A DNA stretch of 62,900 nt, the filler included, from Reclinomonas americana ATCC 50394 (lineage: Eukaryota): NCBI GenBank assembly GCA_048213135.1. It is 18 parts of 18 records of this genome, joined end to end, with 100 filler letters (N's around TTAATTAATTAA, not from the genome) between each part and the next. Parts side by side here need not be neighbours in the genome. Positions count along the whole stretch, not along the records: positions 1 to 8,635 come from AFZH01017933.1; positions 8,736 to 12,310 come from AFZH01017935.1; 16 more parts are not named here. One strand, written 5' to 3'. The translations under genes and the position numbers were made by a program. Under the pieces are notes generated by a model. That model was not told the DNA's origin. It was given only the letters and a program-made list of their open reading frames with translations, and did not search any database. Below are positions 1 to 56,639 of the stretch, in pieces; the first letter of the stretch is position 1; the number at the start of each line of letters is the position of its first letter.

Positions 1-280
1 GTGCCGTGGGCGCCATTGTCGCTGAAGGTCGTGGGGCGGAGGCTGTGGGAGGGATTGATGGCGGTGGCGAGGTGGGTGGCGGGGAGAGAGAGAAGAAGGA
101 GGAGGATGGACAGGAAGGCTGACAGAGAGAGTCTCTCTCCCATCTCATTCTCTTCCCACCCTCACCTCCCGTCTCACTATCTTCCTCCCTCACCTCCATT
201 CCCCTTCCCTCACTTCCCCCCCTCTCTCCTCACTTCCCCTATTCCTCCCTCCCCTCACTTCCCCTCACCCCCCTTCCCAG

Positions 281-2072
281 AAAATCCTACATCACCTGGC
301 TCACCACCCACGTGGACAAGATGAACGCGAAAAAAATCTCCCCGCTGGACCCCAAACACTTTCCCCCCGACCCACTCATCCTCAACGCCGACAAGACGAC
401 GGCGCTGCTGCTTATATGCTTGCACTTGGTGCGCGAGACCTCGGTCACGGCACTCGATCTGGCGCGCCTGGCGCACAGCGGCACTCTGCCGCTGCTCGGC
501 GGCTTCAACTGGGTGCCTGGCTCGCTTAAAATGGACCTGCGCGCGTCGCTCGACTTTGTGCGACCGACGCACGACTTGTTTCAGACGGAGCTGCTGGCGA
601 ACGATGTGGCGCTCTTGTGTCGCACGCTGTGCTTGGAGACGCCTCCGATTGCCTTTGCGCCGTTGGCGGGCAAGCTGATTCACGAGGCACGACTGCCTTC
701 GGCGACGTTGGAGTTGGTGGAGCGCTTCCATGAGTGGTTGGTGCGCGAGGGTCTCGTGCCGGGCGACTTGCGCTTGTCGTGGGCGAGGCATTTTGGTGCG
801 GCAGCCACGCCCCGGAATCCCGCAGGCAAGCGCGTGTACACGCTAATGCCGGTGTCGGTGCGAAGGCGCGTGCTGCCGGAGGCATTTGTGGCGTGCGAAC
901 TCGTCACGGTGCTGATGATGGTGTACGCGATGCACGAAGAGGGTTGTCCGCGCTACACGGCGGCCGCGGAGGATACCGCCATGCGTCGCCTGCTGGAGGA
1001 GTTCCCGCCGTGGGTGGACGTTGTGGCGACGTGGAACGGCACCGCCGTCAAGACCGAGGCGCTGCATCGATTGCCCATGTCGGAAGAGTGGAGTACTCCT
1101 CGTCGATGCGTATCGATCGTCACAAGATCGTGCTCCCTCACACGCGCACGTGCAGTGATATTCGGTTAATGTCCAAGGAGAGTCTCGCCACATTCGTTCG
1201 TCTGTGCCACCGACAGATCCTCACATTTCACCCGATCAATGATTACGGTCTGTGTCGATCGCGAAACACAAGAAGAGGCCTGTGAGTGCTCACACGCGGC
1301 GTGCGCACAGACGACGAACTGCATCGCATGGTGCTGCGAGCGCAGCGTGAAGCACACCAGTCGAAAGCAGATCGGCCTCCAGCATCGCAGAAGAGGGAGG
1401 ATGAAGAGGAGGAGGAGGAGGAGGAGAAGAGGCAAAAACTGCCGAAAGGAACCAGCTCGCCGTGGGGCGTGCCCACCGACCGATGGGAGAGATTGCGGTG
1501 CGATCGAGAGAACTGGAATGTCGCTGCTGCTGAGCTTGCGGGTGACTCACCGCTTCGTTGCAGATCGGTGCGCACCGACGCCGCACCCATGAGCCGCGTT
1601 CCACACTTATTGGGCCTTGGATCGGGTCGGGTGGCTCACAAGATGCCAGCCGGGCACCAGCATCCCGTGGGTTCGCTTTCTTTTTTTTGTGTTCACATGC
1701 GCGCGTTTCCTCCTCTATGTCCTCACCCCCAATTTGGCAGGCAACATTCCGGCACCGTTGCAGCTCGCAGTTTGCTGGATGGCCGAGCGGTGCAGCATTC
1801 AGCTTGCGGTGCTGTGGGAGGGCTTGGTGCGCCTGAACAACATCTTGCGCCACGTCGACACGAGCGCCGAAGCGGAAAAAGTCGGAGGTGGTAGCGGAAG
1901 CGCGAAAAAGCGAGCACAACGCAAGCGCCCGCGCAACGAGGACGACGACGACGATGAGAGTGACCTCGGTGAGGTGAGTGCGTCGGCACCGCCTCGGAAA
2001 CGACGAAAACGACTGGCCCGCCGTCTGCTATTGGACTCGTCTTCCGACGAGGACGAAGACGAGGACGAATGA
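281..2072 (+). CDS. TAF1B: RNA polymerase I initiation factor TAF1B/Rrn7, 3' part, multi-exon (5' exons upstream of window)
   Basis: TTALLLICLHLVRETSVTALDLARLAHSGTLPLLGGFNWVP resembles the TAF1B/Rrn7 cyclin-fold motif (LAFCYLSLLWQREAITLSDLLR...IPY); also PEAFVACELVTVLMMVY and C-terminal LQLAVCWMAERCSIQLAVLWEGLVRL. Phase-consistent introns 1088-1155, 1248-1310, probably 1498-1563, and 1671-1740; TGA ends at 2072. Confidence 0.8.
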
Positions 2073-2630
2073 ATAGTGCATCCTTTCCTATTTTGTTTGC
2101 ACCGCGATGCACGGCCTCAAAAACGACATGTCTCCAATACAGAAAATAACGGGACCAATCGATGGTGTAGCAAACGGAGGCACTGCGCGGGATGTCTTGG
2201 AGGTGGGAGGAGGAGGGCAGGGAAAGGCACGGGTATCCCATGTGCGATGCTGGTGGTTTATTAAAAGCCACGGAATGGGATGCAAGAATCAAGCCAAATA
2301 TAAAAACAAATACTGTCGCGCATCTGCAGTCAAGCGATACATTCTCCCGGTCTACAGTACACTGTGGTGCCTGCTGCTGTATGGTGACGGATGGAAAGAT
2401 AGAGAGAGACAGTGGGCGCGTGCATGCCTGCAGGCGTTATTCGACATGCGCAACCGTTTGGTTGCCTGCCTGATTTGGCAATTTGCGCATAATTGGTGGC
2501 GGTCCAATCATATGATTCACTCAAATTTTCTCATTGATCGAGAGAGAGCACACCACACACACGCACACTCTCTTCATTTTTTTCTGTGTGTGCACGCGCG
2601 CGTGTGTGTGTGTGTGCGCCACAGAGAGTG

Positions 2631-4054
2631 ATGGGGTGCCAGCAATCAACACCAGTGCTTCCACTGCACACCAACAACAACACAATCAAAAGCAATACCA
2701 ACAACAACAACAACGTCGGTTGCGGGCCCGGGGCTCCGAAATGCCAATCTCCTCCAAAGCCGGCGCCGGCATTCAACGCCATTGCCGGTGGCGGATCCAA
2801 CTCGTCTCTCTCCGGCACCTCGTCCTCCTCCTCATCGTCGTCCTCCGCATTGACGCCCGTGCACAACAAGGACGCACCAATCATGGTCGTAATGGCGAAT
2901 GGGGACAGAATGTCGCCACAGCAGCAGCCACTTCCCGGACAAACAGTCAGCACACCAAGGTTTACAGTGGCCGTGCTGGCGGAGCATGAGGCGAGGACGC
3001 GTGTGGAGGGCATGAGCGATGAGTTGCCGACGCAGCCGATGGCGAATGTGTTGGAGGTGAGAAATTGCAAATAAGGATGGTGCTTCTGCAAGGGGGAAGG
3101 TGACCTGACTTCTTGTTGTGCTGTGCAGGGTCGTGCTGTGACCGAGTACTTGCTGCTGGCGTCGATACCAGAGGAGAAGGGAACGTGGCTGCAACGGAGA
3201 GACTCGTACGCGCAGGTTTGCAAAATTCCATGAATTCCTGGACTTCTTCCTCCTCCTTCCTCCTCCTCCTCCTCCCCCACCTCTTCTTCTCTTCCACTTC
3301 GCTCATGCCATCAACGCACACTGCACAGGTGCTAGAACAACGACCCGACTACCTCGGCAAGGAAGTTACGCACTGCTCCTTCCGCAAATCACCTGCGCGG
3401 TTGATACTGACGTGCAGGATACCTTCGCAGACCGTCCGCCAATGGTTAAAAAACCGCCGCATATGCGCGTGGATCGACGACGTGTCGCAGCAGTGCGTGT
3501 TGCAGGGTGGGGCGACACAGTCGCGCTCGTCACAGAGCTCGTTCGAGTCGGTGGGATCCACCATGCTGCGCACCGCCATACCCATGTCGCCGACAGCGAG
3601 CGCCACCGACTTCTTGTCGGGAGTCGGCTCGTTCACTGCCGGCGCCGGCTCGGAGCACGAGCAACTGGAGCAGGCACGTGAGGCGGTCGGGCAGCCGTTC
3701 AGTCAGCGAGTGGCCACTGGCTGCACGACCTCGCCGCGTTCCATGTTTGCCAACACCAACACCACGCGACAGACCTCCAATCCGATGCTGGCCACCGCGA
3801 GTCCGTCTCCGCACGCGCACACGCACCACCATCACCACCACATGCCGCTGGCGCAGCAGGCGGCGCACTATGCGGCGTTTCTGGGCACGGCGCAAGAAAC
3901 ACAAGGCAACGTGCCACCACAATTGCCGCCTCTGCTGCAGCAACAACAACACGATAGAGTTCGCCGACACTTGTCGCTCGACAGCGCGGAGAAGACGGAA
4001 ATCAATGCTGCTCCGCCGCGAGTGCCGCCAATACCCGCGGAGAGTAAAGAGTAA
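2631..4054 (+). CDS. Hypothetical protein with N-terminal MGCQQS acylation motif, 3 exons
   Basis: ATG 2631 (MGCQQST); phase-0 introns ~3058-3128 and ~3216-3329 join into the long ORF ending at 4054; low-complexity S/Q/H-rich tails. Confidence 0.6.
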
Positions 4055-4223
4055 GATGACAGTGTCGTGTGACGAAAGGGAAAGGGATGAATGGGGGAAG
4101 AGAGGGTGAAGGAGGGAAAGGGGAAGAGAGTGTGCAGGAAGAAAAAGAGACAGAGGGCCACAAGACGGAAGAGAGACGATGAAGTAACGTCACTTGCAGG
4201 ACGAGTCATACTCCAATCATCCA

Positions 4224-6405
4224 TCACCTGTGTATTCTCGGTGTCGGACCAGACCGCCTGCGCAAAGGCGGCGGCTGGTGATACTCTTCACCCTCTCGCT
4301 CATCGCCATCCATGTCGAGCGGCGACTTGCCGACCATGCGCTCCGCCACCTCCAGCGTCACCACCTCCTGGTCGACGACATCCTGCTCGGCCTCCTCGTC
4401 GTGAGCGCGGTGGTGGTGGTGGTGGCGGGCCGATGGCGGTCGGCGGGAGCTCGGTGACTCGGCGACGAGCACCGGGCGCGACAGCTGCTCAATGTGCGAC
4501 AGGAGCCAGCCGGTGCGCTTGTAGATCTTGCGGCGCTGCACGTCGTTCTTCGAGTCGGCCACGCGCTGTACCAGGCTCCAAATGTGACGCACACTCTCTG
4601 CGCACGAGGACGAGTGGTGAGATACCACAGCGCGCAGTCAGAATTCCAATACAAGGTGGACGCACCCTGGATCTGCTCCAGCTGCTGCGTCGAAAAGAGG
4701 ATCTTTTGGTCAAAGTCGTTGGTGATAAAGGCGTAGAAGAACGACAGCGCCTCTTCGAGATTGGTTTCGTCTGCAACGAGCAGTGAGAGGAAAGTCGCAC
4801 AGTGAAAGGAAAGGATGGCCAAGAGACGCAACCGACTCCGTGCTCGGGCGACGCCAGGTGCCAGATGAGTCGCTTCGGCGCCCACTCCATAATGTCGAGG
4901 ATTTCGGCGACACACGAGTTGAGGAGCCGGACAGAAGCGTCTGTGGGTGGGTCGAGGGCACTCGCAAACCAGGCCAGCGTGAGGAGCGAGTGCGAGAATT
5001 GATGGTGGGTTCGAGTGTCGTGGATTTGCGGGTGGACCACACTGATCGCAGAAAGGAGTTCAGCACATGGATGGGCGGCGAGAGGGGAGGGCGAAGGGAG
5101 GGGAGGAGACGGAACAGGCGGGCGGGGGTGTCGTGGCCGACGTGGACACAGTCGATGCGGTAGAGCTGGCGGATGAGTTCCATGGCTTGTTTTTCGTGCT
5201 CGAGGCCCTGTGGGATGACAGGGGGAGGAGGGTGAGGGCGAAGGGGAGGAGAAGGGGGGGAGGAGGAGGAGGAGGAGGAGGAGGAGGAGGAGGAGGAGGA
5301 GGAGGAGGAGGAGGAGGAGGAGGAGGAGGAGGAGGAGGAGGAGGAGGAGGAGGGGAGGAGGAGGAGGAGGGAGGAGGAGGAGGAGGGAGGAGGAAGGGAG
5401 GAGAGGAGAGAGGAGAGATGAGAGAGAGGCAGGAGGGAGAGGAGAGAGAGAGAGAAGAGGAGAGAGAGTGAGAGTGCAATCTGAGAAGGGCGAGTGGAGT
5501 CAGATAGGAGGAGTGGAAGAGGTGGCTCGCAACAAGAGCGATGACAAGGAATGAACGAAACGAGAGATGAGAGGAGCATAGAGGAAGAGACAAGCAAGAC
5601 AGAGAGAGATTCAAAAAAAGAAGAAGGCCACAGAGGAAGAGAGCACAGAGACACCATGCTCCCCCATCCCCCTCCCTCTCCCTTTTCACTCACAAGACAA
5701 GAAGGCGACATAAGAAGAGAGTGCAGAGAACGCATACTCCCCCATTCCCCATTTCCCACCCACCTGCGCAATCCTCCCCAACCTCGCACAACACACCGCG
5801 GCCGTCGTATGCGCCTTCATGCGGTTCTCCCGCGTACACGCCCCCGGCAACCTCCGCAACACCCTCTGCAGCGTATCCCCACACAACAGCAAGCAATCCT
5901 CATGTCTCTCCAGCTCCGCCAGTCGCACCGCAATCTGATGCTTCGCCACCGCGATCTTCAACAGAGTCTTGCTCAGAGTCACGGGCGGGTGTCGCCCACT
6001 CGACTCCAGCTGCATGTACGCGCAAAAGGCTTCCTCTGCGCGAGTCACACTGCATTCGGCCATGGCCGCAGTCGCCAGCACCAGAACCTGACTGGGATCC
6101 ACAACGACAATAGTGGTAGGAGATGGCGAGGAAATGGTAGGAGAATACGATTGAATGATCATTGGTTGCAGCTGAGGAGAATGCGATGGAACAACTGGTT
6201 GAGGAGATGGCGATGGAATGGCAGGAGAATGCGATGATATGGGGAGTGTAGGTGGGGTTGATTGGGGGAGGGCGAGGAGAGGTGGAGTGGGAGGTGCGGG
6301 TGGTTCGAGTCTGTTGGTAGAGGTGCGAGTTGTGGTGGTGGTGGTGTGGGAGGGAGTGGGTTCGATGACGGTGAGGTGTGGGTGGGAGGAGTGGTGGCAG
6401 CCCAT
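4224..6405 (-). CDS. Hypothetical protein: MGCHHSS acylation motif, P/S-rich linker, TPR-like helical region; multi-exon (intact 'gene C')
   Basis: ATG 6405; exon 1 to 5764 (..CCARLGRIAQ|GTGGGT); phase-0 intron 5763-5208 joins to GLEHEKQAMELIRQLY, giving a TPR-like helix pair. Further exons match ORFs 4489-5040, 4358-4915 and 4224-4628; internal splice sites uncertain. Confidence 0.55.
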
Positions 6406-6529
6406 TCTGTTGTTGACAGAGTGCGGTAAGTGAGTGAGGACATGATTGTGGTGTGACAACCGACGTTGTTGAACTGCTGGTTGTGTGTGGACGTCGCGTC
6501 GATGGTTTTGTATAGCTTGTGTGTTGTTT

Positions 6530-8569
6530 TTATTCGACGAGGAAGACTTCGTAGTCGGCAACTTGAAACAGGCGCGATCCCATTAGAGTCGTGTTGTCGC
6601 ATGCAGCGCCGTCGGTGCCCTGGTAAGAGTGCCCAAGGTTGCTGTTGCTGTTGCTGTTGCAGTTGCAGTTGTCAGCCAAGTAAAGGTCGAATCCTCCGAA
6701 TGCAGGCCCATATGCAGAGTTGTGATAAACGGCATGCTGTTTCTGATCGTCCTTCAGTGCAAAGCGTCGCGCACTTGCACCACTCCACGACGCTGAGAAC
6801 AAGAAGCTGGTGCCAGATGGATCGGCGGCATAAACGCCACCAGCGGTGCCAGTCTGCCACGACACAGGCGTGTATCCACCACACACTCGTCCCATCGACG
6901 ACTTGGCCAAAGTGAGCGTCGGCCTGCGCACAGTCTCACTCATCAGTCACCGAGCACAACAGGCTTCCCATTCTCCCGATCACTCACCCACGACTGTCAC
7001 ACCGCTGATGGAATGTGGCTGCCTTGAACCCATCTCGACTGCCCTTGAACAGCAACGTCAGCTTGGGCACACTCCCACCGCCACCTCTCGCTTGCTGCAC
7101 CCATTGCAGCACCACTCGCCCATCCACCGCACTCAGCAGATCACTTGTCTTCGCCCACACCGCTCGCTCCCGCTCCTCCCGCTCCCTGGCCTCGCGCTCG
7201 CGCTCCTCCCGCTCCCTGGCTTGCCGCTCACGCTCCTCCTGCTCTCTGGCCTGTCGCTCTCGTTCAGCCGCCTCACGCTCCTGAATCGCTCGTTCACGCA
7301 TCTCCAGCGGCTCGAGACGGGAGAGTAGCTGCACATGGACAGGAGAAAGAGTGAGGGAGAGGAGAGATGAACTCAACAATTCAAAGGCAATCACAAGACC
7401 AGACCTCAGCAACACCTCTCTCGAGAGATTCACGCATGCGACGCTCTGCAGCCAGCTGATCGCGAGCAGCTTGAATCTCAGCTTGCCTTGCCTGTCGTTC
7501 GTCAGCCAGTTGCTGGCGGCATTCGACGAGCATGCCCACGCAATCGACAAGTCGCTCAGTCGCGGCTTGTTGCTCGTGAGTCAATCGCACTTCAGCAGAA
7601 TGCCTCGCCTCCCTCTCGTGAGCCACCAACTGAGAAAGCTCGCGTACTTGCATGTGCAGCTGCACAAGCACGCATTCCCAGATATCAGAACAACGGAATG
7701 CATACTCATCACATCTCCTCTCGCAAACCTCTCGCAGCGGTCGCTCCACTCGCAACACATCACACACTCGTTCATGCTCCTCCCTCTCACCAAGCACACC
7801 ACGCCATCCACACCCCAGATCACCACCACGACACACTGTGTGCTGCAGTCGGCACTCCGTTTCTGCCACAACGAGAATAGCAACATCAGTGTCATGATAC
7901 ACCTCTCTCTCCATCAAGCGCCACTGACCAAGATGCCTCTGCATCTCCGCCAGTGCACACCGCTGCTGACATCCACGCGGACACACTCGCATGCATCCAC
8001 TCCAGCTGTGCTCCACCATCTCACTCAGCGCCATTCTTGCTCCACATCCGAGTGGACACTCGCGCAAGCATCCACTCCACTCGTGCTCCGCCGTGCGATC
8101 GAGTGTCATTTGCTGTCCACACCTCTCGCATGCATGCGGGCACTGCGTCAAGGCATGTGTGCGGTAATAGTCGCCCACCGTCTGTTCATCCATCAGTGAG
8201 GAAGACAGAAAAACAAACAACTCTCCATGACAACACAAACCATGGGTGCGTGGCACAGCGGGCATGCAATCTGTGACGCTCTCTCATTTCAACATCGCTG
8301 TTGATGCATTCAGCATCAACAGACTACTGCACAGAACCTTCATGTTGGTGTACATGAGTTGGAGTCGTCGTGGTGCCTCCTTCAACGTGGCGTGAGATGT
8401 GACTCCATCGCCACACAGATCCGATCCACTCTCCGTCACATGCTCACTGGCAATCATTGTCACAATGAGTGAGTCAAGCAAGCCAGCGCATTGTCTTCCT
8501 CACACTCACTCACCGACACAAGTGATGCAGCTCGCTTGCACACAGCACGAAATCCGGAGCACACAGATC
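6530..8569 (-). CDS. RING/TRAF-Zn-finger - coiled-coil - TLDc protein, copy A1 (exon 1 lost in the gap at 8636)
   Basis: TRAF-type fingers (CERCGQQM..EHEWSGC..CPLGCG..EH..C..CPRGC..RHL), E/R-rich helix, TLDc motifs LLFKGSRDGF..FHQRCD.RGPTL, GGYT..SW, SFLFS, GPAFGG..DL, SNLG.SY, FQVADYEVF*. Confidence 0.85.
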
Positions 8570-8597
8570 CTGACAACAAAACAATCATTAACGCAAG

Positions 8598-8630
<33 letters not shown>

Positions 8631-8635
8631 CGACG

Positions 8636-8735
8636 NNNNNNNNNNNNNNNNNNNNNNNNNNNNNNNNNNNNNNNNNNNNTTAATTAATTAANNNNNNNNN
8701 NNNNNNNNNNNNNNNNNNNNNNNNNNNNNNNNNNN
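8636..8735. other. Artificial gap spacer N44-TTAATTAATTAA-N44 (first of 17)
   Basis: Identical 100-nt spacers start at 8636, 12311, 16654, 18563, 20015, 23881, 25542, 28041, 32244, 35220, 36652, 45303, 47973, 50087, 56536, 57973 and 59827; the core gives stops in all six frames. Confidence 0.99.
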
Positions 8736-9024
8736 GGCAGGAGAATGCGAGGAAACAGCAGGAGATTGCGACTGAATGATCATCATTGGTTGCAGCTGAG
8801 GAGAATGCGATGGAACAGCTGGTTGAGGAGATGGCGATGGAATGGGAGGAGAATGCGATGAAATGGGGAGTGTAGGTGGGGTTGATTGGGGGGAGGGCGA
8901 GGAGAGGTGGAGTGGGAGGTGCGGGTGGTTCGAGTCTGTTGGTAGAGGTGCAAGTGGTTGTGGTGTGGGAGGGAGTGGGTTCGATGACGGTGAGGTGAGG
9001 GTGGGAGGAGTGGTGGCAGCCCAT
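8736..9024 (-). pseudogene. Duplicated 5' fragment of gene C (MGCHHSS...) between A1 and A2
   Basis: Near-identical to 6150-6405 but with a frameshift after LLALP; runs into the gap. Confidence 0.7.
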
Positions 9025-9138
9025 TCTGTTGTTGAGTGAGGGCGAGGATGTTGATGATTGTGGTGAATGACAACCGACGTTGTTGAACTGGTGGTTGTGT
9101 GTGGACGTCGCGTCGATGGTTTTGTAGCTTGTGTGTTT

Positions 9139-11582
9139 TTATTCGACGAGGAAGACTTCGTAGTCGGCCACTTGGAAGTTCTGCGATCCCATCAGGGTCT
9201 TGTCGTCGCATGCAGCGCCGTCGGTGCTCTGGTACGAGTTTCCAAGGTTGCTGTAGCTGTTGCTGTTGCTGTTGCAGCTGTCAACCAAGCGAAAGTCGTG
9301 TCCACCTCCGAACGCAGGTCCACCCTCAGAGTAATGATAAACGGCTTTCTGTTTCTGATCCGACTTCAGTGCAAAGCGTCGCGCACTCGCACCACTCCAC
9401 GAAGCAGAGAACAGGAAGCTGGTGACGGCTTGATCGGCGCCCCAAGCATTCGTCGACTGCCACGACACAGGCATGTATCCACCACACACTCGTCCCGTCG
9501 ACGACTTGGCCACAGTCAGCGTCGGTCTGCACACAGTCACACACTCATCAGTCACCGAACACTCAAGCTGTCGCTCTCCAATCACTCACCCACGATTGTC
9601 ACACCGCTGGTGGAATGTGGCTGCCTTGAACCCATCTCGACTGCCCTTGAACAGTAACGTCAACTTGGGCACACTCCCACCGCCACCTCTCGCTTGCTGC
9701 ACCCACTCCAACACCACTCGTCCATCCGCCGCACTCAGCAGATCGCTGTCAATCTTCCTCTCAGCTCGTTCTCGTTCCTCTCGCTCCCTGGCCTGCCGCT
9801 CCCGCTCTTCTCGTTCTCTCGCCTGCCGCTCTCGCTCCTCCTGCTCTCTGGCTCGGCGCTCGCGTTCAGCCGCCTCTCGCTCCTGAATCGCTCGTTCACG
9901 CATCTCCAGCGGCTCGAGACGGGAGAGTAGCTGCACATGGACAGGAGAAAGAGTGAGGGAGAGGAGAGATGAACTCAACAATTCAAAGGCAATCACAAGA
10001 CCAGACCTCAGCAACACCTCTCTCGAGAGATTCACGCATGCGACGCTCTGCAGCCAGCTGATCGCGAGCAGCTTGAATCTCAGCTTGCCTCGCCTGTCGT
10101 TCGTCAGCCAGTTGCTGCCGGCACTCGACAAGCATCCCCACACAATCGGCAAGTCGCTCATCGGCAGCTCGCATCTCAGCTTGCCTCGCCTCTCTTTCCT
10201 GCATCAGTTGCTCCCTGCTCTCAGCCACCAGCTGAGACAGTTCGCGCACTTGCACGTGCAACTGCGCACCCACACACGCCTCGAATCAGAACAAAGAGAG
10301 TGCATTCTCATCAACCAACTCCCACCCAACAAACCTCTCGCAGCGGTCGCTCCACTCGCAACACATCGCACACTCGCTCATGCTCCTCCTTCTCACCAAT
10401 AGTACCACGCCATCCACACCCCAGTTCGCCACCGCGACACACAGTGTGCTGCAGTCGGCACTCCGTTTCTGCCACCACACAACGTCAGTGTCATGATAAC
10501 ACTTCTCTCCTTCCAAGCACACTCACCAAGATGCCGCTGCATCTCCGCCAGTGAACATCGCTTTTGACATCCACGCGGACACACTCGCAGGCACCCGCTC
10601 CAGCTGTGCTCCACCATCTCACTCAGTGCCATCCTCGCTCCACATCCGAGAGGACACTCGCGCAAGCATCCACTCCACTCATGCTCCGCCGTGCGATCGA
10701 GTGTCATTTGCTGTCCACACCTCTCGCATGCATGCGGGCACTGCGTCAAGGCATGTGTGCGGTAATAGTCGCCCACCGTCTGTTCATCCACCAGTGAGGA
10801 GAGAAGCAAGACAAACAACTCTCCATGCCAAACACAAACCATGGGTGCGTGGCACAGCGGGCATGCAATCTGTGGTGCCTCTCTCATGTCAACATCACTG
10901 GCGATGCACTCTGCATCAAGAAGACAACCGCACACAACCTTCATATTGTTGTACATAAGCTGGAATCGACGCGGAACCTCATGCATAGTGGCCACCGACA
11001 TGACTCCATCGCCACACAGATCCGATCCACTCTCCGTCGCATGCTCACTGGCAATCATTGCCACAATGAGTGAGTCAAACAAGCCAGCGCACTGCCTTTC
11101 TTACCATTACTCACCGACACAAGTGATGCAGCTCGCTGGCACACAGCACGAAATCCGGAGCACACAGATCCTGACAACAAAACAATCATCAATGCACGCA
11201 CATGAGAGAGAGAGAGAGAGAGACAACTCACACTGCTGCATTCTCTCTCTCTCTCTCTCACTCTCTCTCTCTCCTTCACACTCACCATGCACACTGGACA
11301 CAGATACTCGTCCGCCAATGCACGCGACTCCGCAGCAACATGCTCCATCCACAAACGCGGTGGCTCCTTCACATCCTCCTTCTCCTTCTCTTCTCCTTCC
11401 ACCTCTGATGGAGGACGACGATGCACCGCGCGCACCACACAAAACACGTATTGTTCCTCATCAGCAAGTCGCATCACTTGCTGCTCGAGAACAACCTGAC
11501 TGGCATCCTCTGAAGCAGCAACAGGAGGGGGAAGAGGAGGAGCAGATCCACTGCCTTCGCCTCCACCGTCTTCGAAGCCCAT
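9139..11582 (-). CDS. RING/TRAF-Zn-finger - coiled-coil - TLDc protein, copy A2 (complete, multi-exon)
   Basis: ATG 11582 (MGFEDGGGEGSG); EYLCPVCM|DLCAPDFVLCASELHHLC variant RING, TRAF fingers, coiled coil, TLDc ending YEVFLVE* at 9139; same intron positions as A3. Confidence 0.85.
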
Positions 11583-12169
11583 TCTCAAACGAGACACGGA
11601 GCAATGAGGGCGGAGGACATGCATGTGTGCGCAGGACGCGTTCCTCTTGAGAGGGGTGAAGCAAACAGTGACTCATCGATGGGTGCTGCGCACGGAGAGT
11701 GCCAAAGACGGTTTGTTGGCACGTCTGCTTGATGCGCAAGAGGAGATCAAGAGAAGTATTCATGAAACCGGACAGCCCTTTCTTTTGCAACTGACGGGTG
11801 GAGGGAAGGCTGGGGAAGTGGAGCACTGAAGTCTCTGGGGAAGGGTTTGCACAGTTGATGGCAGAGGACTTCTGAACTGCATTTGCAGACAGATATCGCA
11901 AATATCGATGCGCAGAAGGGCACAAGCAACGTACTCAGGGCTTCTCACCATGGAGAAGATCGCCCTCCTCTTCTGCACAGTAGCCTTGTCGCTTTGCCAA
12001 ACAAATGCAACAAGAGCAGACGTCGAGGACACCTTTATCTCTCTTGTTCGAAATGTTGCTGCGCGGCAGTGGTCTCGTGCATCGCCTTTTGCGTCGATGC
12101 GCCTTGCCTTCTGTTGCTGGTGTTGCTGTTGAGAGACAGTCAACAGTGTCGCTGCTGCAAAGCGCGTGG

Positions 12170-12227
12170 ATGTCGTCCTCATCGTCAGCGGGAAAGAAGG
12201 CTGGAAAGGGTCAAAAGGGAAAGAAGG
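12170..12227 (+). CDS. Possible first exon (MSSSSSAGKKAGKGQKGKKG) of a gene running into the gap
   Basis: ATG followed by a K-rich peptide and a GTGAGT donor at 12228; no family recognisable. Confidence 0.3.
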
Positions 12228-48200: not shown

Positions 48201-51200
48201 CTTGTTTTGCAGGATCACATTTTGCTGTTTTGTTATGACTGGCCAGTCTCTCCCGTTAGTAACAATTGTTAATGTCGCTATTCCATCTCAATTTGTGTTT
48301 TCTGGTCACAGCCTTGTCATTGGGTCTCGCTCTCTCTGTCTCTGGTGTTCTATCTCTTCTCGCCTTTCAAATCTTTGTGCTTCGCTCTTTCTTTGTCATT
48401 TTCACTGTCTTGCTCTCTCTGACTCTCTTTGCCCTGTTTTCTGACTGCATCCCTTTCCCTGTTTAGCGTCAAGCGCGAGCACCTGCCTCCGCTCGTCTAC
48501 AGCATGATGACGGATGCACAGCTGCGCAAGGAGATGCGCAAGTGGGACTTGCCGGCCACCGGCACTCGTTCAGTTGCGTTGCTTTGCTGCTCTGCCCTGT
48601 TCACTCCACTGCGCGCTCACTCGCGCAGGTGCTGGAGAGGCGGCATCGCGAGTTTGTCGTGCAGTACAATGCGCAGTGCGACTCGCCCGACCCGCTCTCC
48701 GTGTCGGACATGATTCGCGGACTGCTGGAGGAGGAGCATCGTGTGGAGCGTGCGCGCCGGCATCAAGACAGTTGCGAGCGGTTGTGGAAGAGGAGGAGGA
48801 TGGGAGATCGTTTGCTGACCCTCCTATGCAGATGGCGAGGCCACCAGCAAGGCGGTGTTCAAGCAGCTGGAGGAGGAGGTGCGGCAGAGGAAGCAAGCAA
48901 TGGCGACGACTCCGACGACACCGGTGGTGGCGGTGGCGGAGGCGGAGGCGGAGGCGAGTGAGACTCTGAGGTGAGCGGAGGGAGAGGGGGGTAGGGGAGA
49001 AGAAGTTGTTATCAGTGAGTGTGCTGCATTGAGCGATAGCAGAGTGGCGAGGGGGGAAAGATATTGTCCTCTGCAAGAGTTCTCCTTTCGCTCCGTTAAG
49101 CGATTGCAGTTTTCGACGATTCTCTCGTGGCTGGTCAGAGGGGGAAAGAGATTGTGCTCTGCAAGAGTTCTCCATTCGCGCCGTTGTGCGATGGCAGAGT
49201 TTGTCGACGATTCTCTCGTGGCTGGTCAGAGGAGGTGAAGAGATTGTGCTCTGCAAATGTTCTCCTTTCTTTCCGTTGCGATAGCAAAGTTTATCGACGA
49301 TCCCCTTTTGTCGATACTTCAGTGCTATAGCTTGCTGCTTGCAATTGCCGAACAAGAAGAACTACGTGGTGACTTGCTTCGTCGTGAACAACTGTCAGTC
49401 TCTCCAGTTCCTTCTTCTTTCGATTTCCTCATCTGATTGTGGCTCCGATCTGCCTCTCTGTGTACACCATTCCGCACTTTTGTTGACAGGCAGAGATTGG
49501 AAGTATCGGCGAGTTACCCGTCGAGCGAAATATTGAAGCTGACATAGCTCTTCCTCTGTCTCTCACTTTTTCTCTCCTCGTTCTCTCTTCGATTCCATCG
49601 CTTCCCCACTCCCTCTAGTGCCGTCTGCCTATCCCTTGCTGCTCCCTTTCTGTTTCTCCCGCGCGCTCTCTTTCTCTCTCTCTCTTTCTTCCCTTTTCCT
49701 TCTCTTTCGCGGTACTTCTCCATTCCCCAATTTGTGAGAGAGACAATAACAGAGAGACAATGATAAAGAGTGAGCGAGCGAGGGAGAGACACGAAAGCAG
49801 AATGAGACAGACACGGAGAGAAAGAGAGACAGAAGGAGAGACAGAGATAGATTAAGAGAGCGAAGGAGTGAGCGAGAGAGACATGCATACAAAAAGAGAT
49901 AAATTGAGAAACAGAGAAAGAGACAGTGACCTCTTCCATTCTCCCTCTGGCGCCATCTACTTCTCCCTTGCTGCTCTTTGTCTGTTTCTTTCTCTTTTTC
50001 TACCCCCTCAATTCTCATTTTCACCTTCTCTTCTAACTCCCTTTGTAGTGTTGTTGATTCTCTCTCTCTCTCTTTCTCTCTCTCTCNNNNNNNNNNNNNN
50101 NNNNNNNNNNNNNNNNNNNNNNNNNNNNNNTTAATTAATTAANNNNNNNNNNNNNNNNNNNNNNNNNNNNNNNNNNNNNNNNNNNNGCCGTATGCTGTCT
50201 GCTTCTCCCTTCCCTCCCCCCTCCTCCTTTCCCCTGTTGCCGTCTTCTCTCTCTTATTCATGCGTGTCTCAACATGAGCTGCTCCCCCACCAGTCCTGCC
50301 GTTGCTGACTCGGCACCCCCGGTCGTGGCACCCCCGAGCCCAGCCGGCCCTCTTCCTCTCACCTGTCCACCCAGTCCGCCACCACCGGCAGACGAATCGG
50401 TGAATGATTGCGTCGCCCTTTTCTTCACTTTTGCCAACAACCTCACACGCCTTTCCCTCTACACAGGTCACCTGCGCACCGGCGAGTCCCGCAGCCGTGC
50501 CAGTATGCCCGCCGAGTCCACAATCGCCGAGTCGCAGCGCGCCTGTGGTGTCCGGGGACGATGTGCAGATTAAGGAGGAGGTGAAGGAGGAAGCAGAGGA
50601 GGAGGAGGAGGAAGAGTCGTATGTGGTGTGCTCGCAGCAGCACTTGAGCAAGTTGACGCCGTCGCAGCAGGCGGTGGAGTCGCAGGCTTCCATGTCGACG
50701 CCGTCGGGGAGTGGGGTGCCGGAGGTGAAGTCGGCGTTGCAGATGAAGCAGGGTGAGTGGGGTGGGAGGGAGGGAGGGAGGGAGGGAGGGAGGTAGAAGG
50801 GGGAGGGAGGGAGGGAGGGAGAGAGAGACAAAGAGAGAGGGAGAGAGAAAGAGATGTAGAGAGAGAGAGGGAAAAAGGGGTGCGTCACCAAAGATGATTG
50901 AGCAACTGGTGCTGTACGAAAGAGCGACGACATAGACAGGCGAACAGACAGACGGAGAGGACGTCTGGGAGAGGCAAAGAGAAAGAGAGAAAGGAGAGCT
51001 TTCGTTGTAAGGGTAAGATTGGGGCGAGCTTCTTGTGCCTGTGAGGGACAGAGAGGTGGCATTCATGTTGCCACTTCAGTGACTGCCTCTCTCACTGTGC
51101 TTACTACGCAGAGCGCGAGCGCGCCGTGAAGCGAGCGTTCGCCGCGCTGGCCACTCAGTCGCAGTCGGTGCAATCGACGGCATCGCCGCCGCGGAAACGG

Positions 51201-51422
51201 AGACGCGATGACAATGGTGCGACGGAGGGATTGTCGGCGTTGACGCCGGCGTTGGAGATGATGTCGGTGTGTGGAGGGATGAGAAAGGGACAGGTTGGTG
51301 ATATACGGCGCTCATTTGAGTTTGGGCAGGATATTGTGGTGACGCGATCGAATGGTGCACCGCTGCGGCCGCCGAGGAGGAGTGAGCGGGCGAGATTGCC
51401 GACGTATAGAGAGGAGGAATGA
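44806..51422 (+). CDS. RAD18: E3 ubiquitin ligase RAD18 (RING + SAP), multi-exon, spans three gaps
   Basis: Spliced RING LRCPVCHDFFTTAMQLRGCAHA|FCSLCVRRYF..CPVCRQ|..SDLIPVRQLDSVVSAF (intron 45017-46225 crosses a gap in phase); SAP LPPLVYSMMTDAQLRKEMRKWDLPATGTRS|VLERRHREFVVQYNAQCDS; FKQLEEEVRQR. Start codon and the 50467-51422 tail exons are less certain. Confidence 0.88.
47560..47972. repeat. ~125-145-bp tandem repeat x3 in a RAD18 intron
   Basis: CACTTTCCTC..CATACGCGTGTGTACC..AGAGTTCTG..GCTGTATGAATGGG at ~47570, 47716 and 47848. Confidence 0.85.
49040..49320. repeat. ~90-bp tandem repeat x3 in a RAD18 intron
   Basis: AGATTGTGCTCTGCAAGAGTTCTCC..CGACGATTCTCTCGTGGCTGGTCAGAGG repeated. Confidence 0.8.
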
Positions 51423-51542
51423 AGCGAGGAGAAGGGTGAGAAGTTTTGTGTGTTCTGCGGAGTGGGCTCAACTGAGGCAGAGAGGAGGGAGATGGACAAG
51501 GCATCATGCAAAACGGCAAACTCCGCAGTCCTGGCAGCGTGG

Positions 51543-51727
51543 ACCGAATGTAGTGTGAGCCGCGCAGAGGAAGCCCTTTGCGCGTACATGCAACTGGAGT
51601 CGAGTGGGCGGCACCCGACTGTGACTCTGAGCAAGACTCTGTTGAAGATCGCGGTGGCGAAGCATCAGATTGCGGTGCGACTGGCGGAGCTGGAGAGACA
51701 CGAGGATTGCTTGCTGTTATGTGGTTG
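51543..51727 (+). pseudogene. Internal fragment of gene C (ECSVSRAEEALCAY..CLLLCG) fused to the sequence upstream of A
   Basis: Near-identical to the reverse complement of 5880-6060; begins ~120 bp after the RAD18 stop. Confidence 0.75.
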
Positions 51728-52345
51728 CCGGGAAAGGGGGAAGGGGAGGACGACATCCACGCGCTTTGTAACAGCGACACTGTCTCAACAGCAACACCTA
51801 GAGGCAAGGCGCATCGACGCACGAGGCGATGCACGAGACCACTGCTGCGCAGCAACATATCGAACAAGAGAGATGAAGAAAGGTGTCCTCGAAGTCTGCT
51901 CTTGTCGCATGTGTTTGGCAAAGCGACAAGGGTATTGTGCAGAAGAAGAGGGCGATCTTCTCCATGGTGGTGGTGGTGAGAAGCCCTGAGTGCGTTGCTG
52001 GTGCCCTTCTGCACATCGATATTTGCGATATCTGTCTGCAAATGCAGTTCAGAAGTCCTCTGCCATCTGCAAGCCGTATCTCGGGGGGAGTGCAGTTCTC
52101 CACTTCCTCCCAGCCTTCCCTCCGCCCGTCAGTTGCAAGTGAATGGGCTGTCCGGTTTCATGCTTGTTTCTCTAGATCTCCTCTTGCCCATCAAGCAGAC
52201 GTGCCAACACACCGTCTGTCGCACTCTCCGTACGCAGCACCCATCGATGTGTCACTGTTTGCTTCACCCCTGTCAAGAGGAACGCGTCGTCCTGTGCACA
52301 CACATGCATGTCCTCCGTCCTCATTGTTCCGTGTGTCGTTGAGAG

Positions 52346-52652
52346 ATGGGTTTCGAAGACGGTGGAGGTGAAGGCAGTGGATCAGCTCCTCCTCTTCCCC
52401 CTCTTCCTCCTCCTCCTTCAGAGGATGACAGTCAGGTTGTTCTCGAGCAGCAAGTGATGCAACTCACTGCTGATGAGGAACAATACGTGTTTTGTGTGGT
52501 GCGCGCGGTGCATCGTCGTCCTCCGTCGGAGGTGGAAGGAGAAGAGAAAGATGTGAAGGAACCACCGCGTTTGTGGATGGAGCATGTTGCTGCGGAGTCG
52601 CGTGCATTGGCGGACGAGTATCTGTGTCCAGTGTGCATGGTGAGTGCGAGGA

Positions 52653-52695
<43 letters not shown>

Positions 52696-54893
52696 ATGCA
52701 GCATTGTGAGTCGTCTCTCTCTCTCTCTCTCTCATGTGCGTGCATTGATGATTGCTTTGTTGTCAGGATCTGTGTGCTCCGGATTTCGTGTTGTGTGCCA
52801 GCGAGCTGCATCACTTGTGTCGGTGAGTGAGGAAGAAAGTGAAGGCAGTGCGCTGGCGTGCTCGACTTGCTCATTGTGGCAATGATTGCCAGTGAGCATG
52901 TGACGGAGGCTGGATCGGATTTGTGTGGCGATGGGATCACATCTCACGCCACGTTGAAGGAGGCACCACGACGACTCCAGCTCATGTATGGCAACATGAA
53001 GGTTGCGCGTGGTTATCTATTGATGCAGAGTGCATCGCCAGTGATGCTCACATGAGAGAGCACCACAGATTACATGCCCGCTGTGCCACGCACCCATGGT
53101 TTGTTTGTCATGGAGAGTTGTTTGTCTTGGTTTCTCTCTCCTGACTGTGGATGAGCAGACTGTGGGCGACTATTACCGCACACATGGCCCATCGCAGTGC
53201 CCGTATGCGTGCGAGAGGTGTGGACAGCAGATGACACTCGATCGCACGGTGGAGCATGAGTGGAGTGGATGCTTGCGCGAGTGTCCACTCGGATGTGGAG
53301 CAAGAATGGCGCTGAGTGAGATGGTGGAGCACAGCTGGAGTGGGTGCATGCGAGTGTGTCCGCGTGGATGTCAGCAGCGGTGTTCATTGGCGGAGATGCA
53401 GAGGCATCTTGGTGAGTGTCCTTCGAGAGGAGAGAGCGGTGTATCGTGACACTGATTTGGTGTCTCTCGTGGTAGAAACGGAGTGCCGACTGCAGCACAC
53501 TGTGTGTCGTGGTGGCGAACTGGGGTTTGGATGGCGTGGTACTATTGGTGAGAAGGAGGAGCACGAACGAGTGTGTGATGTGTTGCGAGTAGAGCGACCA
53601 CTGCGAGAGGTTTGTGAGTGAGAGGAAATGTGATGAGAATGGATTCACTTTGTTCTGATTCGAGGCGTGTGTGCTTGTGCAGCTGCACGATCGAGTGCGA
53701 GAGCTTCCCCAGCTGCAAGTGCAAGTGCGTGAGCTATCTCAGCTCGTGGCTCACGAGAGGGAAGCTAGACAAGCTGCTGAAGTGCGATTGACTCGCGAGC
53801 AACAAGCGGCGACTGAGCGACTTGTCGATTGCGTGGGGATGCTCGTCGAGTGCCGCCAGCAACTGGCTGATGAACGACAAGCGAGACAAGCCACAGACGA
53901 GCAACTTGCTTCTGAGCGTCGCATGCGTGAATCTCTCGAGAGAGGTGTCACTGAGGTCTGCTACGTGATTGCCTTTGAATTGTTGAGTGCATCTCTCCTC
54001 TCCCTCACTCTTTCTCCTGTCCATCTGCAGCTGCTCGCCCGTCTCGAGCCGTTGGAGGTGCGCGAACGAGCGATCCAGGAACGGGAGGCGGCTGAACGAG
54101 AGCGACAGGCCAGAGAGCAGGAAGAACGCGAGCGGCAGGCCAGAGAGCAGGAGGAGCGCGAGCGGCAGGCCAGGGAGCGAGAGGAACGCGAGCGGCAGGC
54201 CAGAGAGCGAGAAGAGCGGGAGCGTGAGGCCAGAGAGCGGGAGGAGCGGGAACGAGTGGAGATACAAAAGAGCGATCTTCTGAGTGCGGCAGATGCGCGA
54301 GTGGTGCTGCAATGGGTGCAGCAGGCGCGAGGCGGCGGTGGGAGTGTGCCCAAGCTGACGTTGCTGTTCAAGGGCAGTCGAGATGGATTCAGGGTAACCA
54401 CATTCCATCAGTGGTGTGACAATCGTGGGTGAGTGATTGCGGAAATGAGAAGGAGAGCTCGGTGTGCTTGATAATTGATGGATGAGTGGCTGTACGCAGA
54501 CCGACGCTGACTGTAGCCGAATCGTCGACGGGACGAGTGTGTGGTGGATACACGCCTGTCTCGTGGACGTCTGCGGGCGGCTATGCCGCCGATCCGTCTG
54601 GCACCAGCTTCTTGTTCTCGGCATCGTGGAGTGGTGCAAGTGCGCGACGCTTTGCACTGAAGGAGGATAAGAAACAGCATGCCGTTCAGCACTACTCTGC
54701 GCATGGGCCTACATTCGGAGGATGCGACCTTCACTTGGCTGACAACTGCAACAGCAACAGCGCCAGCTACAGCAACCTTGGCAACCTTGGGAACTCATAC
54801 CAGAGCACCGACGGCGCTGCATGCGACAACACGACTCTGATGGGATCGCGCGCCTTCCAAGTGGCCGACTACGAAGTCTTCCTCGTCGAATAA
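52346..54893 (+). CDS. RING/TRAF-Zn-finger - coiled-coil - TLDc protein, copy A3 (complete)
   Basis: ATG 52346; phase-consistent introns include 52640-52766, 53002-53068 and 54429-54499. Spliced EYLCPVCMDLCAPDFVLCASELHHLCREH..LCGD..APRRLQLMYGNMKITCPLC, TRAF fingers, coiled coil, E/R helix, TLDc; TAA ends at 54893. Confidence 0.87.
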
Positions 54894-55005
54894 AAACAAC
54901 ACACAAGCTACAAAACCATCGAAGCGACGTCCTCACACAACCACCAGTTCAACAACGTCGGTTGTTCTCATGTCCTCAACATCCTCGTCCTCACTCAACC
55001 ACAGA

Positions 55006-55551
55006 ATGGGCTGCCACCACTCCTCCCACCCTCACCTCACCGTCATCGAACCCACTCTCTCCCACACCACCACAACTCGCACAACCAACAGACTCGAACC
55101 ACCCGCACATCCCACTCCACCTCTCCTCGCCCTCCCCCAATCAACCCTACCTACACTCCCCATATCATCGCATTCTCCTGCCATTCCATCGCCATCTCCT
55201 CAACCAGCTGTTCCATCGCATTCTCCTCAGCTGCAGCCAACAATGATCATTCAGTCGCATTCTCCTGCTGTTTCCTCGCCATCTCCAGCTGTTTCCTCGC
55301 CATCTCCTACCACTATTGCTGTTGTGGATCCCAGTCAGGTTCTGGTGCTGGCGACTGCGGCCATGGCCGAATGCAGTGTGACTCGCGCAGAGGAAGCCTT
55401 TTGCGCGTACATGCAACTGGAGTCGAGTGGGCGACACCCGCCAGTGACTCTGAGCAAGACACTGTTGAAGATCGCTGCGCGGTGGCGAAGCATCAGATTG
55501 CGGTGCGACTGGCGGAGCTGGAGAGACACGAGGATTGCTTGCTGTTGTGTG
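55006..55551 (+). pseudogene. Truncated, frameshifted copy of gene C exon 1
   Basis: MGCHHSS start at 55006; 5-nt insertion at ~55474 (AAGATCGCTGCGCGGTGGCG vs AAGATCGCGGTGGCG); homology to C stops at ..CTGTTGTGTGG. Confidence 0.75.
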
Positions 55552-56170
55552 GTTGCCGGGAAAGGGGGACGGGGAGGATGACATCCACGCGCTTTGCAAT
55601 AGCGACACTGTGTCGACTGTCTCTCAACAACAACACCAAGAGGAGGCAAGGTGCATCGACGCAAAAGGCGATGCACGAGACCACTGCCGCGCAGCAACAT
55701 TTCGAACAAGAGAGATGAAGGAAGGTCCTCGACGTCTGCTCTTGTCGCGTGTGTGTGGCAAAGCGACAAGGCTATTGTGCATGAAGAGGGCGACCTTCTC
55801 CATGGTGGTGGTGGTGGGATGCCCTGAGTGCGTTGCTGCTGCCTTCTGCATATCGATATTTGCAATATCTGTCTGCAAATGCAGTTCAGAAGTCCTCTGC
55901 CATCAACTGTGCAAGCCCTTCCCCGGAGATTGCAGTGCTCCACTTCCTCCGAGCCTTCTCTCCACCCGTCAGTTGCAAGTGAAAGGGCTGTCCGGTTTCA
56001 TGCTTGTTTCTCTCCTCCTGCGCATCAAGCATACGTGCCAACAAACAGTCTGTGACACTCTCCTTACGCAGCACCCATCGATGCGTCACTGTTTGCTTCA
56101 CCCCTCTCAAGAGGAACGCGTCCTGCGCGCATGCATGTCCTCCACCCTCATTGTTCCGGTGTCGTTGAGA

Positions 56171-56473
56171 ATGGGATTCGAAGACGGTGGAGGCGAGGGC
56201 AGTGGATCAGCTCCTCCTCATCCTCTTCCTCTTCCTCCTCTTGCTTCAGAGGATGACAGTCAGGTTGTTCTCGAGCAGCAAGTGATGCGACTCAGCGATG
56301 AGGAACAATACGTGTTTTGTGTGGTGCGCGCGGTGCATCGTCGTCCTCCGTCGGAGATGGAAGGAGAAGAGAAGGAGAAGAAGGATGTGAAGGAGCCACC
56401 GCGTTTGTGGATGGAGCACGTTGCTGCAGAGTCGCGTGCGTTGGCGGACGAGTATCTGTGTCCAGTGTGCATG
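56171..56473 (+). CDS. RING/TRAF/TLDc protein, copy A4, exon 1 only (rest lost in the gap)
   Basis: MGFEDGGGEGSG...EYLCPVCM|GTGAGT, homologous to A2/A3 exon 1. Confidence 0.75.
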
Positions 56474-56639
56474 GTGAGTGTGTGAAGGAGAGAGAGAGAG
56501 AGAGAGAGAATGCAGCATTGTGAGTCGTCTCTCTCNNNNNNNNNNNNNNNNNNNNNNNNNNNNNNNNNNNNNNNNNNNNTTAATTAATTAANNNNNNNNN
56601 NNNNNNNNNNNNNNNNNNNNNNNNNNNNNNNNNNNTTCT

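Follow-up and report, generated by a model that had tools for sequence, protein, structure and literature searches.

What can a protein built like a TRAF do with a TLDc domain in the place where TRAFs carry MATH? The question arises from a small gene family in a 62,900-nucleotide stretch of DNA from the intron-rich eukaryote Reclinomonas americana ATCC 50394 (GenBank assembly GCA_048213135.1). This stretch, referred to here as the window, consists of 18 contigs (~1.3 to 8.6 kb) strung together and not of one continuous piece of the genome. From the N- to the C-terminus, the spliced protein comprises an acidic and proline-rich head, a RING-like Cys/His cluster, five zinc fingers, a predicted coiled-coil helix, a helix of variable length rich in glutamate and arginine (the E/R helix), and the TLDc domain. 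A first-pass annotation of the window had described this order of modules from the Cys/His cluster onwards, with TLDc at the position of MATH in TRAFs, and our analysis bears it out. We see an even chance that these ~620-650-residue proteins work as a TRAF/SIAH-like ubiquitin ligase, or as a scaffold for one, with TLDc as the recognition end.

A spliced gene family under purifying selection

When the A2 model was used as the tblastn query against the window, the gene was located at four places only (6533-8575, 9142-11582, 52418-54890 and 56243-56473), the same four at which copies had been annotated. The copies, and the modules of the complete copy A2, are as follows.

9139..11582, minus strand: copy A2, complete; 9 exons, 620 aa, open spliced model with all introns GT..AG (exons 11582-11286, 11170-11115, 11047-10939, 10869-10840, 10779-10527, 10468-10335, 10261-10007, 9930-9590 and 9526-9139)
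6530..8569, minus strand: copy A1, exons 2-9; 523 aa, open, exon 1 missing (exons 8569-8514, 8446-8338, 8270-8241, 8181-7929, 7862-7729, 7659-7405, 7328-6988 and 6923-6530)
52346..54893, plus strand: copy A3, complete; 9 exons, 646 aa (exons 52346-52639, 52767-52822, 52893-53001, 53069-53098, 53159-53411, 53476-53609, 53683-53955, 54031-54428 and 54500-54893)
56171..56473, plus strand: copy A4, exon 1 only; 101 codons, the contig stopping at 56535 in intron 1
11008..11300, minus strand: A2 putative RING-like cluster (Cys/His motif), residues 95-131, across exons 1-3
10368..10863, minus strand: A2 finger array, five C2HC units, residues 157-282, exons 4-6
10007..10261, minus strand: A2 exon 7 helix, 85 residues, modelled as a parallel trimeric coiled coil
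9748..9930, minus strand: A2 E/R-rich helix, residues 379-439, with 30-nt (10-residue) repeats
9142..9747, minus strand: A2 TLDc domain, residues 440-620, split by intron 8 (9589-9527)

The model has eight introns of 58-127 nt, whose GT donor and AG acceptor are kept in every copy having the site, and the start codon and first residues of A2 are common to A3 and A4. That the gene is spliced, as had been claimed, is upheld by this open nine-exon model and by the conservation of its splice sites among the copies. The joins between exons 1 and 2 and between exons 2 and 3 are based on splice signals and phase alone.

One part of the earlier gene structure had to be revised. It left the third exon undivided, and in the resulting eight-exon model (643 aa, open in A2) this exon is 2 nt shorter in A1 and in A3 than in A2. 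An added GT..AG intron within it (69 nt in A2 and 67 nt in each of A1 and A3) restores the frame in all three copies. We dropped the eight-exon model because only the nine-exon model keeps A1 and A3 in frame; since the latter leaves both open, A1 and A3 were ruled out as frameshifted pseudogenes.

The three pairwise comparisons of the copies gave whole-alignment ratios of nonsynonymous to synonymous substitution (dN/dS) of 0.31, 0.23 and 0.27, at dS of 0.31, 0.27 and 0.41. In the same comparisons, exon indels were multiples of 3 in 2 of 2, 4 of 6 and 7 of 9 events, and intron indels in 0 of 10, 2 of 9 and 3 of 13. Two odd exon indels (41+16) in the E/R repeat total 57 and represent one event split by the aligner. 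Because dN/dS is 0.23-0.31 and exon indels keep the frame where intron indels do not, we conclude that these are maintained coding genes and not pseudogenes. They form a small gene family under purifying selection, with three or four copies, at least two of them in true tandem.

A C-terminal TLDc domain from a remote clade

The C-terminal TLDc domain of the first-pass annotation was readily confirmed. Pfam TLD (PF07534, with a curated cut-off of 24.5 bits) matched the exon 9 translations of A2 (7.5e-13, 49.2 bits) and A3 (1.4e-11, 45.1 bits) as well as the open reading frames holding exon 9 of A1 (1.4e-12, 48.3 bits) and A2 (51.2 bits), such that A1, A2 and A3 all exceed the cut-off. The match of A2 exon 9 spans profile positions 54-169 and continues over intron 8 into exon 8, where positions 25-51 are matched below threshold (E 0.025); the spliced domain aligns unbroken over the intron 8 junction to the TLDc domains of six proteins (P0010-P0015).

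A profile of the window's TLDc clade (172 positions) matched the solved TLDc domains of mEAK7 (7u8o, 5.7e-10) and Skywalker (9.4e-7), 4acj (1.7e-5) and NCOA7 (chains at 2.9e-4 to 6.7e-4), with 6r82 and 7uzg also matched. The TLDc fold is certain, and the clade is remote from the studied members, OXR1 and NCOA7 among them. The C-terminal part of the domain, encoded by exon 9, evolves faster overall than any other part of the protein, with dN/dS of 0.41-0.55; the ratio is 0.11-0.26 in the N-terminal part of TLDc, 0.11-0.25 in the fingers, 0.10-0.14 in the E/R helix and 0.14-0.48 in the exon 7 helix. As judged from three sequences, this would fit a diversifying receptor or, equally, relaxed constraint.

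A profile search for TLDc relatives among proteins of at least 320 aa, with 7999 candidates scored, gave 1802 matches at E<=1e-5, of which 120 were listed. Precomputed Pfam lists place BTB-type domains (PF02214, PF00651 and PF16017) in 43 of the 120 listed relatives and a RING or zf-TRAF family in none of them. Since the window protein itself would appear as "TLD only" in such lists, the first 300 residues of A2 were also searched against the listed relatives, and nothing better than E 0.33 was found. KCTD-type BTB fusions are frequent, two TLDc copies are present in 78 of 121 proteins of the clade, and other modules among the listed relatives include EGF, TSP1, chitin-binding, crystallin, EF-hand, Stig1 and MACPF domains. 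To the eye, P0012 starts with a hydrophobic stretch like a signal peptide. P0094, with nine C2HC-like patterns, was considered as a TRAF-fingered relative and ruled out, the patterns being Stig1 repeats.

In a FastTree phylogeny of 124 TLDc domains, the three window copies formed a clade of their own (support 100, stem 0.6), placed where the tree is unresolved. The large TLDc clade (P0010-P0136 as listed) extends over corals, rotifers, dinoflagellates, amoebae, choanoflagellates and glomeromycete fungi. No paper on this clade, or on a fusion of TLDc with TRAF/RING or with BTB, turned up in a literature search at the level of abstracts.

Zinc fingers of the TRAF/Siah type

The spliced protein has five consecutive finger units, where the first-pass annotation gave no number, spaced C-x2-6-C-x11-12-H-x3-4-C. 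The finger query for HMMER was a piece of A1 that includes 21 residues of in-frame intron read-through, and an exhaustive search of 1.84 billion representatives returned only eight proteins at E<=0.001, with 1.2e-8 for the top one. By Pfam, zf-TRAF is present in five of the eight, Sina_ZnF above its cut-off in two (P0002 and P0004), and TLD in none. A finger family profile, built from the window fingers and one local part from each of seven relatives, matched TRAF6 (5vo0, 6e-10; 3hcs, 2.7e-8), TRAF4 (4.1e-7) and FLN29.

The predicted fold points the same way. An AlphaFold2 (AF2) model of the fingers consists of repeated beta-beta-alpha units, with a predicted local distance difference test score (pLDDT) of 70.1, and ~80-85 in the fingers. 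With this model as the Foldseek query, TRAF6 (3hcs_A, E 7.3e-4) was the sole hit at E<=0.001 of 157. VIA placed TRAF6 at Z 5.3, with a root-mean-square deviation of 1.4 A over 52 residues, and Siah1 at Z 4.8-5.0, and zf-TRAF clusters made up 10 of the 30 nearest in the ESM Atlas, at 0.93. A single-sequence search of the PDB with the finger piece gave selenoprotein W at E 0.39 only, and when A2 exons 3-5 were compared by word index with proteins of at least 304 aa, none of the 170 candidates scored. We accept the array as TRAF/Siah-type from sequence and model comparisons. The earlier designation as TRAF-type fingers is thereby retained on the basis of the five C2HC units, their relatives, the profile and the fold, and without the direct Pfam zf-TRAF match that the name might lead one to expect.

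The nearest named finger relatives, with 28-39% identity, come from the amoebozoans Pelomyxa schiedti (P0003) and Planoprotostelium fungivorum (P0006). Both have a RING-like cluster just upstream of the fingers, P0006 with a helix after them, and both have other C-termini instead of TLDc. In P0006 this is a second copy of the module and a RanBP2 finger. In P0003 (881 aa), pentapeptide repeats and a SPRY-looking C-terminus were noted by eye after the RING-like cluster and fingers; this may be another swapped C-terminal module on a RING-like/finger scaffold. The combination of RING-like cluster, TRAF fingers and TLDc was not found among the eight finger relatives or the 120 listed TLDc relatives.

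A putative RING N-terminal to the fingers

The Cys/His string quoted in the first-pass annotation does occur in the spliced protein, as C-x2-C-x10-C-x4-H-x2-C-x2-H-x8-C-x-D. Each copy that contains this part keeps all of its eight candidate ligands, and dN/dS over the RING-like part is 0.28-0.33. The first finger, which starts with CPLC, follows 25 residues later, and we take this succession of cluster and CPLC finger to be a TRAF6-like layout. A RING-like Cys-rich cluster was also seen by eye N-terminal to the fingers in four of the eight finger relatives (P0002, P0003, P0006 and P0008), and P0002 is the only one of the eight to pass the Pfam RING model. CPLC was considered as the last pair of RING ligands and rejected, since it opens a C-x2-C-x12-H-x4-C unit like those of the following fingers, matching the layout of P0006; it also lies ~25 residues past C-x-D, so it was placed with the fingers. 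What survives of the "variant RING" described earlier is a Cys/His motif with conserved candidate ligands, with no match to a small home-made RING profile, and on the motif both RING identity and E3 activity are putative and unproven.

Helices between the fingers and TLDc

AF2 modelling of the A3 stretch predicted long helices over exon 7 (pLDDT 75-89) and a single helix over the E/R region (pLDDT 93-97). Three copies of exon 7 modelled together reached an interaction prediction score from aligned errors (ipSAE) of 0.68, and the best of three controls reached 0.01. Between trimer runs at least 97% of contacts agree, with partner pLDDT of at least 83 and in-register contacts every 3-4 residues. 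In a calibration made on two copies, as opposed to the three of the exon 7 model, 21 of 30 proteins whose solved structures are pairs of one chain attained the 0.68 mark, and none of the 23 with a solved single chain did. The model supports self-association of the exon 7 helix as a parallel coiled coil. The coiled coil that had been annotated is a candidate, with helicity and the trimer model in its favour and a heptad shuffle test that was not significant.

The E/R helix is encoded by a 30-nt repeat, for which Tandem Repeats Finder counted 5.0 copies at 54100-54248 (plus strand) in A3; A1 and A2 have fewer. Because the number of E/R repeats differs, the paralogues vary in the length of the spacer that separates TLDc from the coiled coil.

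Comparison with characterised proteins

The window protein has the same order of modules as the TRAF family, whose archetype TRAF6 consists of RING, TRAF zinc fingers, coiled coil and MATH/TRAF-C. Like TRAF6, it combines a Cys/His cluster, a C2HC finger array (whose best match among solved structures, in profile and fold comparisons alike, is TRAF6) and a coiled coil modelled as a parallel trimer. Unlike TRAFs, it has TLDc in the place of MATH, five fingers and an inserted E/R repeat helix, and its cluster, a putative RING, has deviant spacing. Pfam found no MATH in any exon at E<=10. Since there is no MATH domain and the C-terminus is TLDc, we refer to the protein as TRAF-like and not as a TRAF. 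In the SIAH/Sina E3 ligases, a RING precedes C2HC fingers of this superfamily, to which the Siah1 and Sina_ZnF matches relate; these ligases differ in having two fingers and a beta-sandwich substrate-binding domain, and they have neither coiled coil nor TLDc.

On the TLDc side, the window's clade is shared by BTB/KCTD-TLDc and BTB-BACK-TLDc proteins of corals, dinoflagellates, amoebae and glomeromycete fungi, for example those of Stylophora (P0013), Pocillopora (P0030), Symbiodinium (P0070), Planoprotostelium (P0043) and Funneliformis (P0014). These are 29-44% identical to exon 9, including a common S-Y-S-N-L-G motif, and in them, too, TLDc is joined to a module from the ubiquitin-ligase world: BTB proteins are Cul3 substrate adaptors. 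They carry BTB instead of a RING-like cluster and TRAF fingers, most have two TLDc copies, and the fusions are named by annotation only. In the tree, the long-stemmed clade of the window TLDc domains is not nested in a BTB clade.

The characterised TLDc proteins mEAK7/TLDC1, OXR1, NCOA7 and TBC1D24/Skywalker belong to the same Pfam TLD family and are distant (E 5.7e-10 to 6.7e-4). Their partner domains are TBC, LysM and myristoylation, and their known role is to bind and regulate the vacuolar-type ATPase (V-ATPase). According to PMC8608904, V-ATPase binding is known for OXR1, NCOA7, TLDC2 and mEAK7, glycines are critical in Ncoa7, and the effect of a poly-E motif upstream of TLDc in Ncoa7 and Tldc2 was not significant. 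The acidic stretch just upstream of TLDc in the window protein recalls this motif.

Discussion

Our data suggest a protein in which each module could contribute to a ligase-like assembly. In the mechanism we propose, the coiled coil would make an oligomer, the Zn-finger/RING-like end would recruit or form the ubiquitin-conjugating machinery, the E/R helix would serve as a rigid spacer, and the TLDc domains, clustered by oligomerization, would bind a partner or substrate. That the protein has E3 activity, that TLDc receives the substrate, and what the partner is are matters of inference only. TLDc as the recognition end of a ligase is plausible, and it gains indirect support because the clade is recurrently fused to BTB (in 43 of the 120 listed relatives) and because the C-terminal part of TLDc evolves fastest. 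The first-pass annotation had also suggested a candidate sensor of vacuole damage or cell-autonomous defence, noting that TLDc proteins bind V-ATPase. V-ATPase binding cannot be assumed, because this TLDc clade is remote from OXR1/NCOA7 and is fused to secreted-type modules, and a role in V-ATPase or vacuole-damage sensing is speculation.

Several of our results weigh against the reading of the protein as a TRAF/SIAH-like ligase or ligase scaffold. The RING consensus has a loop of 1-3 residues from the third ligand to the His and a Cys at ligand 6. The window cluster departs from it with a loop of 4, a His at ligand 6 and a C-x-D end. An in-house hidden Markov model built from six RING-like segments of relatives, a weak test, gave 1.8 bits, a score reached by 127 of 1000 shuffles, and Pfam found no RING at E<=10 on exon 1 alone, which holds part of a cluster that spans exons 1-3. 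For the fingers, Pfam zf-TRAF had no match on the window exons, on which zf_UBZ was best at 2.8e-4, below its cut-off; the finger family profile also matches C2H2 arrays, such as a designed one at 6.5e-10; and the VIA score for TRAF6 is modest. A3 has a Phe (53527-53529, plus strand) at the second Cys of finger 5, which is a Cys in A1 and A2, and this finger may be lost in A3. A crude test for hydrophobic residues at heptad positions a and d of exon 7 was not significant, with 249 of 1000 shuffles as high, and the complex score of the trimer is read against two-copy complexes. The fusion of TLDc to secreted-type modules means that the clade is not tied to ubiquitin ligases and is a warning that it serves for binding in general, and no relative with the same architecture was found that would show its conservation.

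The question of catalysis separates our reading from one in which the protein is a scaffold without ubiquitination, the RING-like cluster being degenerate or structural and an oligomeric adaptor bringing a cluster of TLDc domains to a partner such as V-ATPase. We take this seriously without thinking it probable. The cluster's unusual ligand spacing and its want of profile support are what such a scaffold would show, and several TRAFs are themselves mainly adaptors. According to PMC8608904, the characterised TLDc proteins all act by binding and not by catalysis, and the acidic stretch upstream of TLDc has its counterpart in Ncoa7 and Tldc2, though its effect there was not significant. Against a purely structural cluster, all eight putative ligands are kept in all copies having them, in a region with dN/dS of 0.28-0.33, and the cluster sits at the position of RING in TRAF, in SIAH and in the nearest relatives. 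The distance of the TLDc clade from the V-ATPase binders speaks against that partner.

Two further explanations would remove the question altogether. If a zinc-finger/helix gene and a TLDc gene had been wrongly joined, there would be no such protein. That no database protein with the same fusion was found (among the eight finger relatives and the 120 listed TLDc relatives) could be taken this way, as could the basis of the gene model, which is genomic sequence. We nonetheless consider a wrong join very improbable, as open frames span the junctions in at least one copy: a single frame runs across exons 5, 6 and 7 of A1, introns included, and joins the fingers to the helix; another runs across exons 3-5 of A2; and a 248-codon frame across exon 7, intron 7 and exon 8 of A3 joins the helix to the N-terminal part of TLDc. 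The exon 8 portion of this last frame has no Met, and therefore TLDc in A3 has no start codon of its own there. Intron 7, at 75-76 nt, has no room for a terminator and a promoter, and three copies agree in their GT-AG sites and reading phases. Also very improbable, and if anything slightly more so, is a decaying repeat, with the copies as pseudogenes or parts of a repetitive element. It would account for the repetition of a 3.8-kb unit together with its flanks, for the missing Zn ligand of A3, and for the frameshifted appearance of A1 and A3 if the extra intron is ignored; it is at odds with copies that are all open under one model, with dN/dS of 0.23-0.31 at dS 0.27-0.41, and with a frame kept by exon indels and not by intron indels.

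If a ligase or ligase scaffold with a TLDc recognition end is the right reading, its consequences reach beyond the window. The molecular role of TLDc is debated, and the few members studied all bind V-ATPase; the window protein is a testable case of TLDc at the position of MATH. A role for TLDc as the receptor of a ubiquitin ligase would widen the function of the domain and draw attention to a large unstudied family in corals, coral symbionts and protists. A broader proposal, which we regard as unlikely, is that this TLDc clade is a general, fast-evolving target-recognition cassette of ubiquitin ligases, used on a RING-like/TRAF scaffold and on Cul3-BTB adaptors alike, and that the tandem diverging copies form a family for cell-autonomous surveillance or defence. 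Were it true, the cassette would be an unrecognised class of substrate receptor comparable to MATH or SPRY. If the RING-like cluster is inactive, the gene would be one more lineage-specific domain shuffle.

Arrangement of the copies and other features of the window

The arrangement of the copies has to be read against the construction of the window, in which 34 runs of 44 N, paired around TTAATTAATTAA, make up 17 spacers of 100 nt. Because the contigs are joined by concatenation, adjacency read across any spacer is unsafe. The features that bear on the arrangement are as follows.

8636..8735, no strand: artificial spacer N44 + TTAATTAATTAA + N44, one of 17
12311-12410 and 16654-16753: further spacers, with 14 more
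51544..56535, plus strand: tandem repeat unit of 3823 bp, 51544-55366, repeating from 55367 to the contig end (self-blast)

The copies had been described as amplified in tandem. This is right for A3 and A4, which share the contig 50187-56535 on the same strand, with A4 1.3 kb downstream of A3; in self-blast, 51544-52721 is 87.4% identical to 55367-56535 over 1214 nt, and the step from A3 to A4 is a genuine tandem duplication of the 3823-bp unit. The description is unsupported for A1 and A2, which lie on the contigs 1-8635 and 8736-12310 and are neighbours by concatenation only, their adjacency being an artefact of the spacer. By blastn, A1 is 86.4% identical to A2 over 2245 nt and 83.2% identical to A3 over 2339 nt.

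A1 is without exon 1 because its contig stops inside intron 1. The contig end (8635) falls inside a (CT)n run of that intron, and the contig of A4 ends in the same repeat, with an overlap of ~12 nt. A4 may be the missing first exon of A1, and given this overlap of the A4 and A1 ends the number of genes is three or four. GA/CT microsatellites are frequent at contig ends, and the GC content of the window is 47-62%.

Intron 7 is identical (76/76) between A1 (7329-7404) and A2 (9931-10006), against ~55-88% identity in the other introns. The pattern points to a tract of recent gene conversion between the A1 and A2 copies, which are on different contigs. A conserved open stretch (5879-6150, minus strand; 51544-51740 and 55300-55560, plus strand) is part of the 3.8-kb repeat unit and lies ~450-700 nt 3' of each copy's stop codon and ~600-800 nt 5' of the next start. 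Pfam gave no match in it, and a frameshift separates one of its copies from another; candidate identities are a small gene, an unannotated 5' exon and an untranslated region.

Rfam and tRNA scans of the window gave no match. A Pfam scan of 124 other open reading frames of the window (at least 145 aa) gave a single match, in line with and confirming a eukaryotic origin: a Serinc (serine incorporator) fragment at 23015-23635 on the plus strand, matched at 9e-17 over profile positions 88-208.

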